IMG/VR virus record: IMGVR_UViG_3300032233_003111
Span: 1 to 47,583 of that record
DNA length: 47,583 bases
Strand: one strand, 5' to 3'
DNA from: a virus
Taxonomy: Duplodnaviria; Caudoviricetes
The notes beneath the pieces are model-generated. The model was not told the origin of the DNA and made no database searches. It saw only the letters and a program-made list of their open reading frames with translations. Positions 4,108-39,106 of the stretch are shown piece by piece. Position numbers and translations under genes: made by a program. Within the stretch, counting starts at the first letter, position 1. The number at the start of each line of letters is the position of its first letter.

Positions 4108-4410
4108 ATGGCTGAATCTAAACGAAAAAGATCAACGGCAGATTTTTACGCCAGCCATCCAGAGTCTTACAAGAAAAAACTTGCCTACGATAAAAAGCGT
4201 AACGCTCGTTCTGATCGCAAAAAATATCGTGCTGAATTAGCACGAGAGCGCAGAGCGCGTGGAATTATGGGTAGGGGTGGACCGGATGTAAGCCATACTG
4301 CCGATGGTGGTTTCAAGCTAGAAAATCCATCCAAAAATCGTGCCCGTAATGGCCATGGCAACAATGGCAGGCTCGCTCCTGGAAAAGGTACTAAGCGCAG
4401 CAAACGCTAG
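4108..4410 (+). CDS. Small basic HNH-like protein
   Basis: GPDVSHTADGGFKLENPSKNRARN resembles a degenerate HNH core (DVxH...NRxRN). Arg/Lys-rich. Confidence 0.55.
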   Translation: MAESKRKRSTADFYASHPESYKKKLAYDKKRNARSDRKKYRAELARERRARGIMGRGGPDVSHTADGGFKLENPSKNRARNGHGNNGRLAPGKGTKRSKR

Positions 4411-35266: not shown

Positions 35267-35398
35267 TAGCACTGGCGGCAATCTGTTATAGGATTCCGTT
35301 AACTTATAACAGATTATTTAGAGAGCGCTATCTTAAATGGCAGATTGATACCTAAGAGCTCTAGAAGAGAACCGAAGAGGTGCTGGTATAATATGCAT

Positions 35399-35490
35399 AT
35401 CGGCCGGTCAGAACAGGTGTTCAGAGTCGCCTTATAAGCGATTTGCCCCAGATTAGGGCCTTTGGCAGGGATCGTTACCCTGGATCGGTA
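35399..35490 (+). tRNA. Atypical tRNA-like gene, anticodon UAU, long variable arm
   Basis: Anticodon arm GTCGC-CTTATAA-GCGAT. D arm GAAC-AGGT-GTTC. V arm GCCC...GGGC. T arm CAGGG-ATCGTTA-CCCTG. Imperfect acceptor. TGGTATAAT promoter just upstream. Confidence 0.6.
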
Positions 35491-35543
35491 TAGTGACGAT
35501 ATCTTCCAGTAAAGCACTCAAACTGAGTCGGTATGCTGAGAGT

Positions 35544-35617
35544 GCTCGCGTAGCCCAACGGCAGGAGGCAAGGGAATTAGAATCCCTACAGTGCGCGTTC
35601 GAATCGCGTCGCGAGCA
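35544..35617 (+). tRNA. trnL: tRNA-Leu(UAG) with short variable loop
   Basis: Acceptor GCTCGCG/CGCGAGC-A; AGGGA-ATTAGAA-TCCCT; GTTCGAATC. Confidence 0.85.
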
Positions 35618-35638
35618 TGCTATACTGTGCAGGTACCA

Positions 35639-37710
<2,072 letters not shown>

Positions 37711-37711
<1 letters not shown>

Positions 37712-37887
37712 TAAAACGTTAATTTTGCTATGGAAGAGTCAGCTTTGCTTTGCTCTTCTTCATCCATAGAGTTCCACAGATTATCAAGCTTTTGAAGTAA
37801 TACTTCTTCGATATCTGCGTAACTATGTTTCCTTAATTCAAGAATCTGGCGTGTAATAACAAGGTATTCAGTAACTGCTTCACTCAT
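37711..37887 (-). CDS. Hypothetical protein (58 aa)
   Basis: Read manually: MSEAVTEYLVITRQILELRK...LDNLWNSM. TAATG coupling. Confidence 0.55.
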
Positions 37888-37894
37888 GGCTAAT

Positions 37895-38140
37895 TAGGCA
37901 GAATGGTTGCCTGGGTGACCAACCCAGGACTTGCCTCAAGTCTATCATGATCGACTTGAAATAGCGAGTCCCATCCTCGCTGGGTTCATCCGTAAGGCCG
38001 ATGAACGTTTCCCTCCTATAAACCCAGTGAGTTGGGCCTCTGTAACCCGTGAGGCGGGGCTTTTGTTTTTTGCGTCCGGATTGCTACCAGACGTTCCGCG
38101 CTTGTTTGCTGGTCGCTGGGACAACGGCGGCGTTAACCCA
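37895..38140 (-). ncRNA. Candidate structured non-coding RNA or leader
   Basis: TGGTATAAT at 38154-38146(-), dense hairpins and pseudoknot-compatible segments, no convincing ORF. Confidence 0.4.
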
Positions 38141-38159
38141 CATACATTATACCAAGCAA

Positions 38160-38233
38160 TGGCGGGAGCTGGATTTGAACCAGCGGCCTTCAGGTTATGA
38201 ACCTGACGAGCTACCGAGCTGCTCTATCCCGCT
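38160..38233 (-). tRNA. trnM: tRNA-Met(CAU), initiator-like
   Basis: AGCGGGATAGAGCAGCTCGGTAGCTCG-TCAGG-TTCATAA-CCTGA...GGTTCAAATCC...TCCCGCCA, with a 1:72 mismatch. Confidence 0.9.
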
Positions 38234-38249
38234 AAGACCCCGATTTTAA

Positions 38250-38616
38250 CCATCATACGGGGTAAGGGTACCTTCTCCTTGAGGGGCCATGCCCGGTCCG
38301 GGACGGTTGGCCAACCGTGTTGATGGCATGAGTGTGCAAAGCAGTGACTCATGCTCCATCCATTTAACGCCACCGGGGAACAACTGCAGAGAGCTGGACT
38401 GGGCAGACCGGTGACGGCTTCGATTCGGACTTTGTTCCAGAGAACTGCGTCAACCTTCGAAGACTCCGAGCCCGATGCGTCGATTAGAAATTTCCAATCC
38501 ATACAGAGCGGGATGCGCCTCCAGTAGCCAGTCTTCCTTCCCGATGGAAAGGGCAGGCATCGAACCTGCAAGGGCCGGTCCCACTGGAACCGCCGGGAAT
38601 TCCACCCGGAGCGCAC
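38250..38616 (-). ncRNA. Candidate structured ncRNA with a circularly permuted tRNA-like 5' domain
   Basis: Own promoter (38634-38619). T arm GCAGG-TTCGATG-CCTGC followed by acceptor-like hairpin CCTTTCC-ATC-GGGAAGG. Many further hairpins; 3' boundary uncertain. Confidence 0.55.
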
Positions 38617-38630
38617 TAATATTATACCAG

Positions 38631-38665
38631 CACCCCGACCCAGATTTGCACCTGGGACCGATTCT
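38631..38665 (-). pseudogene. 3' fragment of a disrupted tRNA gene
   Basis: AGAAT-CGGTC-CCAGG-TGCAAAT-CTGGG-TCGGGGT-G. TCGGGGT pairs with GCCCCGG at 39117-39111. Confidence 0.65.
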
Positions 38666-38676
38666 TTGGTTAACAA

Positions 38677-38748
38677 CAGCCCCAGTTCGATTCGAACGAA
38701 CGAAACGGTCTTAGAAGGACCGGGTTATATCCACTTAACTATGGGGCC
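38677..38748 (-). tRNA. trnR: tRNA-Arg(UCU)
   Basis: GGCCCCA/TGGGGCT-G acceptor; CGGTC-CTTCTAA-GACCG; GTTCGAATC. Confidence 0.88.
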
Positions 38749-38806
38749 ATGACTTCAGTTTACCAACTTCTAGCATCAGGTCGCTAGAATGTCATAGATC
38801 TAGTCG

Positions 38807-39106
38807 ATGAAAATGGCAACATACAGAGACATGACACCAGAGCAGAAAAGCAGGTTTAATGCGTACTGCGTTGAAAGGTGGAAAAGAAGAAAACGTGAAG
38901 CAATTCAATACAAGGGAGGGCAATGTGAGAACTGTGGGTATTCTAAATGCCAAGAAGCTTTAGAATTTCATCATGTCAATCCCTCAGAGAAAGAGACTGA
39001 CTGGCAAAAATTGCGTCTTCGAAAGTGGAGTAAAATTATGTTAGAGCTTGATAAGTGTCAACTGCTTTGTGCAAATTGTCATAGAGAAGCTCATCGCTTA
39101 CTCTGA
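38807..39106 (+). CDS. HNH endonuclease
   Basis: CENCGY, ALEFHH, ELDKCQLLCANCHREAH. Confidence 0.88.
   Translation: MKMATYRDMTPEQKSRFNAYCVERWKRRKREAIQYKGGQCENCGYSKCQEALEFHHVNPSEKETDWQKLRLRKWSKIMLELDKCQLLCANCHREAHRLL

Follow-up and report, generated by a model that had tools for sequence, protein, structure and literature searches.

The window analysed here, a stretch of 47,583 nucleotides that forms a virus record (47.6 kb, completeness 68%), contains terminase and portal genes and, on its minus strand between genes for tRNA-Arg(TCT) and tRNA-Met, a locus for a small RNA with a conserved unit of 100 nt. The features assigned to this region are listed below in the direction of transcription, with the evidence for each in brackets.

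38676..38749, minus strand: tRNA-Arg(TCT), upstream neighbour (ARAGORN, Rfam)
38621..38629, minus strand: extended -10 promoter-like motif TGGTATAAT, with a predicted transcription start near 38617-38615 (sequence)
38515..38614, minus strand: conserved permuted tRNA-mimic RNA, the whole 100-nt unit (alignments A1 and A2; model R1)
38610..38614, minus strand: P1 5' strand GCGCT, which pairs with GGCGC at 38519-38515 and closes the RNA (4 of 5 pairs compensatory)
38593..38609, minus strand: P2 hairpin CCGGG-TGGAATT-CCCGG (100% paired, C-G/U-A swap)
38576..38592, minus strand: P3 hairpin CGGTTCC-AGT-GGGACCG, with a variable loop of 2-4 nt (99% paired, 2 of 7 pairs compensatory)
38570..38575, minus strand: P4 5' strand GCC, which pairs with GGA at 38522-38520, and the 3-nt connector CTT (2 of 3 pairs compensatory)
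38553..38569, minus strand: T arm GCAGG-TTCGATG-CCTGC (99% paired; loop TTCGATR in 43 of 44)
38536..38552, minus strand: permuted acceptor helix with 3' strand CCTTTCC, ATC loop, 5' strand GGGAAGG and G3·U70 (99% paired)
38552-38546 and 38542-38536, minus strand: the acceptor strands CCTTTCC and GGGAAGG, on either side of the ATC loop (sequence)
38523..38535, minus strand: stemless D-type loop of 13 nt, AAGACTGGCTACT, consensus AAGANNGGCTAYT (13 nt in 44 of 44)
38515..38522, minus strand: 3' strands of P4 and P1, GGA-GGCGC (alignment)
38471..38512, minus strand: downstream module A, an irregular hairpin CCCGCTCTG...CATCGGG (80-86% matches in L123, L036 and L177)
38318..38470, minus strand: middle stretch of the downstream region (close relatives only)
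38266..38317, minus strand: downstream module D, multi-hairpin, CCGTCCCGGAC...AAGG-AGAA (85% match in L123)
38159..38234, minus strand: tRNA-Met(CAT), downstream neighbour (ARAGORN, Rfam)

A full-length, Synechococcus-like CTP synthase (pyrG) is carried by the phage at 35950-37554 on the plus strand. Its best match, at 79%, is a Synechococcus MAG (among 600 stretches scanned, in 1 of the 64 parts of GTDB), which points to a picocyanobacterial host for the window phage, and the viruses that carry the 100-nt RNA likely have small freshwater cyanobacteria as hosts. At 35641-35935, also on the plus strand, there is a tRNA-Leu gene that was missed by ARAGORN and is nearly identical in a related phage, L034; its anticodon loop is interrupted by a group I intron (Rfam Intron_gpI at 35664-35856, 44.4 bits, E 4e-10, cut-off 50). 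An older tRNA-Arg gene is present in two halves (39117-39085 and about 38667-38631, minus strand), split by an insert that holds an HNH gene (38807-39106, plus strand) and the replacement tRNA-Arg(TCT); an X3 contig joins 38667 to 39103 without the insert, and the tRNA-Arg gene of L034 is intact. Positions 5536-6385 of L034 correspond to window 35371-36148 and 38551-38629, with 99% identity over 778 nt and flanks of about 70%. Window 36149-38550, with the greater part of pyrG and the RNA's 3' half, is missing from L034 by deletion or misassembly, with a CTGCCC microhomology at the join. The extended -10 motif, in the form TG(G/C)TATA(A/C)T, is found before several non-coding stretches of the window (39137, 38629 and 38154 on the minus strand, 35384 and 35618 on the plus strand), and another small RNA may lie at 38150-38050 (minus strand), after tRNA-Met.

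Homologs and secondary structure

Homologs of the 100-nt RNA were found in about 80 IMG/VR contigs that belong to two phage groups. L034 has the first 79 nt of the RNA at 85% identity, followed by the deletion; motifs common to the window and L034 were used to reach full copies in L036, L037 and L068, and further full copies are present in L118, L119 and L121/L122 (four of five metagenome hits) and in large T4-like phages. The closest isolates of L126 are the Synechococcus myoviruses DSL-LC03, DSL-LC02 and S-SRM01. Scanning with a 5' motif gave at least 43 members among 115 loci, and with a 3' motif 76 members in 81 loci, each of which scores at least 103 bits with R1, a covariance model built from the phage homologs. 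The window copy scores 105.8 bits with R1, against a background of at most 25.8 bits in 870 kb of other phage loci, above which the partial copy of L034 (45.7 bits) is the lone exception. The first two pattern scans, which used the T arm and acceptor of the window, had returned 13 and 4 loci, and these were ordinary or YrlA-like tRNA elements, not homologs. The members form two clades with support of 100/99, a 9-row group that includes the window and a 35-row group mostly from larger phages; the two complete records checked in the small-genome group are of 79-93 kb. Of 45 distinct copies, 41 have a tRNA no more than 700 nt away.

BLASTN against 50,697 phage records gave no homolog of the 100-nt RNA or of the downstream 273 nt, a pattern scan of GTDB gave no match, and R1 gave none on 151 genomes of the host family, a weak test with 25 candidates scored per genome and without a positive control. 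The best R1 score on six isolated Synechococcus myoviruses was 22 bits, the level of the background. Within what was searched, the RNA appears to be confined to phages.

Folding of the single sequence was weak, with a z of -0.37 over 386 nt (no better than shuffles) and a modest -1.77 for the first domain, so that homologs had to decide on the fold. Alignment A1 holds 29 distinct members, with 55 locus hits collapsed and the partial copy and one truncated copy left out, and unaided RNAalifold recovered from it a fold with 12 of 32 pairs compensatory, in which P1, P2, P3 and P4 join in a four-way junction without unpaired bases; beyond P4 the chain runs through a 3-nt connector, the T arm, the loop-closed 7-bp acceptor helix and the 13 unpaired nucleotides back to P4. 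Counted on the alignment, 98.3% of 925 cells are paired and 13 of 32 pairs are compensatory, which was matched by none of 500 shuffles, with slid-partner controls at 40-54%. A larger, model-fitted alignment has 98.0% of its cells paired and 15 compensatory pairs, and 16 members outside the first alignment, all of the large-phage group, have 502 of 512 cells paired (79 of 81 rows used). As the members form two clades, independent covariation events are few and the compensatory counts overstate them.

Support is uneven among the helices. Single-sequence prediction returned the T arm, acceptor and P3 in 27-28 of 29 members, P1 and P2 in 14, and P4 in none; the 3'-strand GG of P4 could for that reason be the D-loop GG instead. 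Each compensatory pair of P4 likely reflects one event, about two events in total, and its first pair is G·A in the window copy. A helix of GCC with GGC in the D-type loop was dropped, since covariation supports GCC/GGM at the 3' end. No helix was found in columns 91-103, the D stem being absent from the alignment, and the D-type loop in A1 has an invariant AAGA and an invariant GGCTA, of which GGCTA was part of the selection filter and AAGA was not. Conservation of the RNA and its secondary structure are established, P4 only weakly.

These results bear on an initial annotation of the DNA, which had proposed a new RNA with a circularly permuted tRNA-like domain. That proposal is borne out by the covarying fold and the lack of an Rfam family, and the T arm and the ATC loop are present where claimed, as are the two acceptor strands, with their order reversed; P2 and P3, two conserved hairpins 5' of the T arm, had been missed. 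The domain had been drawn as closed by two helices, which use the same GGA. The GCGC core of GTGCGC-TCC/GGA-G-GCGCAT is retained, but not its TCC/GGA extension, with pair 9-106 broken in 8 of 29 members, and TCCAGTGG/CTACTGGA is discarded, with 64% of cells paired, no compensatory change and 500 of 500 shuffles as good.

A single RNA of about 385 nt had also been envisaged, of which a further 260 nt or so of hairpins would be part. The conserved unit is 100 nt (38614-38515, minus strand), and the hairpins are separate, shuffled modules. The RNA is taken to end at P1, since 10 of 45 copies have the start of a tRNA no more than 15 nt further on. Three parts make up the 280 nt downstream: module A (38512-38471), the middle stretch and module D (38317-38266). 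Modules A and D also turn up in L123, L036, L177 and L119, where their spacing differs and the order is not fixed, with the module D motif preceding module A in L119 and L177, and among 45 copies module A directly follows the RNA in the window only. The middle stretch has no match in the fetched loci and is collinear in Logan contigs of X3, X4 and partly X2. Because close relatives in these three other runs retain the window arrangement at about 90% identity (the whole stretch in X3, part of it in X4 and X2), the downstream region is, by these alignments, a real local array of separate small RNAs. Shuffled small structured modules, in arrays of 400-700 nt without Rfam matches, were also seen in L036 (2640-2100), L037 (3060-3650), L119 (740-1320), L123 (1980-2500) and L177 (650-1430), a set that includes modules A and D of the window.

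The promoter claimed upstream is upheld in so far as TGGTATAAT at 38629-38621 is an extended -10 motif, but a sigma-70 scan found no site at this position and no -35. Of the 10 distinct members of the small-genome group, 8 have the motif, equally spaced from the RNA; these are the only ones among the 45 copies, and copies outside the small-phage group, which lie inside tRNA operons, do not have it. The RNA would be transcribed from the motif or together with a tRNA operon. An overlapping 150-aa ORF (38676-38224), conservation of which had been named as evidence against an RNA, is not conserved: the frame has a stop in 22 of 29 homologs, length differences are not multiples of three in 22 of 29, single-base deletions shift the frame in the X3 and X4 contigs, and no PHROG match was found. 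The RNA locus is non-coding.

Identity elements and possible roles

G3·U70 is present in 27 of 29 members, which were chosen without regard to the acceptor, and in 43 of 44 of the larger set, where the scan pattern fixed G1-G3 and not U70. The pairs G1-C72, G2-C71, G3·U70 and A4-U69 are conserved, and acceptor pairs 5-7 vary with compensation (at 5:68, 6:67 and 7:66). At position 73 the 44 members have U (35), G (7) or A (2). The alanine identity set first claimed (G1-C72, G2-C71, G3·U70, A73) is therefore present in the window, and its wobble pair is kept in the family, but with A73 in 2 of 44 only, the complete AlaRS set fails. The acceptor closing loop is of 4 nt in 40 members, 3 nt in two, and 7 and 9 nt in one each (n=44). 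No CCA is conserved among the 44, and the connector (TTT, ATT, TCT or CTT) is GAC in none.

All 44 members carry G33 and a pyrimidine at 37 in the P2 loop, whose third base varies (UGGAA 38, UGAAA 4, UGCAA 1, CGGAA 1). Decoding tRNAs have U33 and a purine at 37 in a 7-nt anticodon loop, and by this feature of the P2 loop the RNA is, as judged from its sequence, not a decoding tRNA. The consensus of T loops is U(G/U)NR(A/U). Since the loop variants fit this consensus and P2 finds its best tRNA matches in T arms, the P2 loop is likely a T-loop motif rather than an anticodon loop; the motif is described in PMC4919913.

The best explanation at present, if one at slightly less than even odds, is that the 100-nt RNA is neither opened nor charged and works as a decoy of tRNA shape, titrating a host protein. 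The transcript, started at the extended -10 motif or made as part of the tRNA operon, would be released through processing of the flanking tRNAs and would fold like the top half of a tRNA, with the T arm stacked on the loop-closed 7-bp acceptor, beside the stemless D-type loop, on the four-way junction; the D-loop GG would dock into the T loop, and the second T-loop motif, in P2, would brace the fold. Its target, bound by the closed and uncharged decoy, would be a protein that recognises the elbow and acceptor helix of tRNA; candidates are a defence nuclease that attacks tRNAs and a factor that handles them, for example SmpB or AlaRS. This reading is suggested by selection that acts on the helix face and elbow and not on the discriminator or loop. 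Of the three roles offered in the initial annotation (a decoy, an RNase P/Z-processed RNA, a tmRNA antagonist), an uncut decoy is favoured by the variable discriminator and the 3-4-nt loop (42 of 44, vs A73 and a loop of at least 7 nt in the permuted tmRNA of the host lineage). Phage tRNAs that counter tRNA-cleaving defences are the subject of published papers. Weighing against the decoy, G1-C72, G2-C71, G3·U70 and A4-U69 seem over-conserved for a passive cap, which suggests recognition by AlaRS or RNase P; in addition, the YrlA of M. smegmatis, which also has a 7-bp acceptor, is cut by RNase P and gains CCA according to PMC4201824.

An abiF-like element adjoins the RNA in L068 (25.7 bits, below the cut-off of 37). 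At 4263-4346 and 4351-4416 of L068 this element, with a long insert, is followed by a second, unusual tRNA-like RNA whose D arm is short and whose loop reads CACATAG, and the two recur in the small-phage group (L037, L119, L121, L123, L177, L036), not in the window region that was read.

The main rival proposed, though an unlikely one, is a tag-less mimic of two-piece tmRNA, which would be cut by RNase P at G1, trimmed of its trailer and given CCA, charged by AlaRS through G3·U70, and then bound by SmpB or EF-Tu, to block host trans-translation or to free stalled ribosomes without a degradation tag. Its order and spacing are those of the permuted tmRNA of the host lineage, the acceptor varies at pairs 5-7 but keeps G3·U70 in 27 of 29 members, the features of a tmRNA tRNA-like domain (TLD) are those given in part of PMC3968760, and there is precedent for TLD-only RNAs in phage DS6A and jakobid mitochondria (parts of PMC4131195 and PMC3985003). 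On the other hand A73 is found in 2 of 44 and a 3-4-nt loop in 42, the connector is never GAC and the D-type loop never has TTCGA (n=44), R1 scores only 10.8-14.3 bits, a background level, on host tmRNA, and no Rfam tmRNA match was obtained; the conserved wobble need not mean AlaRS, because the U·G pair of P3 is as well kept, in 28 of 29. A more specific form is more doubtful again, namely an independently designed, phage-made mimic of two-piece tmRNA, which RNase P would open, which would be alanylated through G3·U70 and braced by the junction and a second T loop, and which would hijack cyanobacterial SmpB and trans-translation, for untagged release of stalled phage proteins or a shut-off of host ribosome rescue. 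It is quite improbable that the RNA acts instead in cis, its compact fold protecting the 5' end of the phage tRNA/ncRNA operon or offering an RNase P/Z cut site that separates its neighbours. In 8 of the 10 small-genome members it comes first behind the extended -10 motif, and in 10 of 45 copies a tRNA begins no more than 15 nt downstream, as would suit such an element, but a wide range of neighbours is seen (Arg, Leu, Val, Thr, His, Met, modules A and E), flanking tRNAs have cut sites of their own, and the near-invariant P2 loop with AAGA and GGCTA points to a specific partner.

The remaining readings carry little weight. A permuted tRNA gene, its product circularised and reopened as an Ala-charged tRNA that reads Phe codons through a GAA loop, would account for the order of anticodon-like arm, variable-like arm, T arm and acceptor and for the tRNA-Phe calls that ARAGORN makes on some members with their native flanks; once rejoined in silico all 29 were called, with the threshold relaxed and no control, a result that is not counted, native copies being called also. 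It is very improbable with G33 and pyrimidine 37 in every member, a middle triplet that varies between GAA, AAA and CAA, no D stem, and 6 nt between P3 and the T arm. Bacteria, moreover, are not known to have the tRNA splicing endonuclease that serves permuted tRNAs of algae and archaea. A divergent YrlA-type Y RNA that binds a Ro60/Rsr protein would have the same order of T arm, closed acceptor and D region, a weak Rfam YrlA match and an R1 score of 21 bits on an unrelated YrlA-like phage element; its probability is equally slight given the lack of the Ro60 motif and a D stem, of TROVE proteins in the phage records and host-family genomes searched, and the higher YrlA scores of ordinary tandem tRNAs. 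That the RNA has no function, being a decayed tRNA junction or conserved through the overlapping ORF, is scarcely credible: weak single-sequence folding scores, loss of the 3' half in L034 and absence from six isolated cyanomyoviruses fit this view, against which stand compensatory changes in all helices and an ORF with stops and frame-breaking lengths (each in 22 of 29), single-base deletions in close relatives and no PHROG match.

Relation to known RNAs

Searches of the window and members against Rfam, with gathering and E-value thresholds, returned only tRNAs, the only matches at gathering level, and sub-threshold noise. The best relevant of the latter is YrlA (RF02553; 14.2 bits, E 8.2, cut-off 69), with no YrlA match on other members, and ordinary tandem tRNAs reach 26.9 bits on the YrlA model. 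The likeness is one of architecture, with a T arm followed by a loop-closed acceptor, paired 5' and 3' ends, a size of about 100 nt and occurrence in phages (parts of PMC4201824 and 10.1101/312249), and most YrlA RNAs are held to keep the acceptor closed (bioRxiv 10.1101/312249, in part). However, the Ro60 motif GNCGAAN0-1G, as given in part of PMC4201824, is in 0 of 44 members, the D stem is missing, and a four-way junction with two hairpins takes the place of the long Ro60 stem. The initial annotation had found no Ro60 gene in the window, and TROVE/Ro60 is likewise absent from 22 phage records (with completeness of 90% or more in 6) and from 201 genomes of the likely host family. YrlA-like elements with a closed acceptor and a Leu-type D arm were noted in the unrelated phages L013 (1465-1570, minus strand) and L010 (1493-1568, plus strand), at 34 and 28 bits (below cut-off), and L001, L005, L009 and L012 have tRNA-like genes that start with GGGAAGG and have abnormal anticodon arms.

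The permuted tmRNA of Synechococcus and Prochlorococcus (RF01851) has the same permuted order, a 7-bp acceptor with G3·U70, a 3-nt connector, a 5-bp T stem, a stemless loop with GG (12 nt in tmRNA, 13 nt in the phage RNA) and no encoded CCA. In the host lineage, where both genes were read, the connector GAC precedes the T arm and the acceptor with A73, after which come a closing loop of at least 7 nt and a GGGG start, with the 12-nt stemless loop CAATGGTTTCGA and TTCGA at the D loop end. The phage RNA differs in lacking the GAC connector, as first reported for the window, and TTCGA (0 of 44 each), in not keeping A73, in its shorter closing loop, and in having neither pseudoknots nor a tag frame; ARAGORN and Rfam call no tmRNA, and a tRNA within 15 nt downstream in 10 of 45 copies likewise speaks against such a frame. 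R1 on the host tmRNA genes gives no sequence similarity above background. No SmpB was found in 15 records, nor a cyano_tmRNA match above cut-off in five. The resemblances pointed out at the start thus hold for the closed acceptor of YrlA and the TLD geometry of tmRNA, but the RNA belongs to neither family.

TLD-only tmRNAs, from mycobacteriophage DS6A and jakobid mitochondria, also have a tRNA-like domain without a message part, and one is phage-encoded (parts of PMC4131195 and PMC3985003). By description these are recognisable tmRNA derivatives, whereas the phage RNA has no tmRNA signatures and adds a four-way junction; the DS6A gene was not located by Rfam (second half of the genome) or by ARAGORN (both halves). 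RnaC and RnaD of phage T4 sit in the T4 tRNA cluster. They too are small phage RNAs of unknown function (part of PMC9697503), set apart from the phage RNA, by sequence comparison alone, in giving no match to it in the phage collection. In a test of origin from a tRNA junction, the T arm and acceptor 3' strand match the 3' ends of ordinary Asn, Ser and Tyr tRNAs with at most 28 of 43.6 bits, and the acceptor 5' strand and D region had an ungapped best of 0 bits against 1,062 tRNAs, with a gapped likeness of 21 bits to the Leu-type D arm in L013. No description of the RNA was found in the literature searched. Thousands of viral RNA candidates are reported in PMC10690425; seven files of its supplement gave no motif or contig match, and files 1 and 2, outside the comparison, may hold the RNA family.

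In summary, the phage RNA is, on present alignments, a well-supported and uncatalogued family of tRNA mimics. At 100 nt it is simple to make, probe, crystallise and use as bait, and being small and tractable it makes the role of non-tRNA genes in phage tRNA clusters directly testable; inventories of phage tRNAs are affected as well, through the tRNA-Phe miscalls by ARAGORN. Natural tRNA mimics in bacteria and phages are few, tmRNA and YrlA among them, and the RNA common to these two unrelated phage groups combines an acceptor closed as in YrlA with an elbow that is stemless as in tmRNA, without the protein-binding signature of either family.
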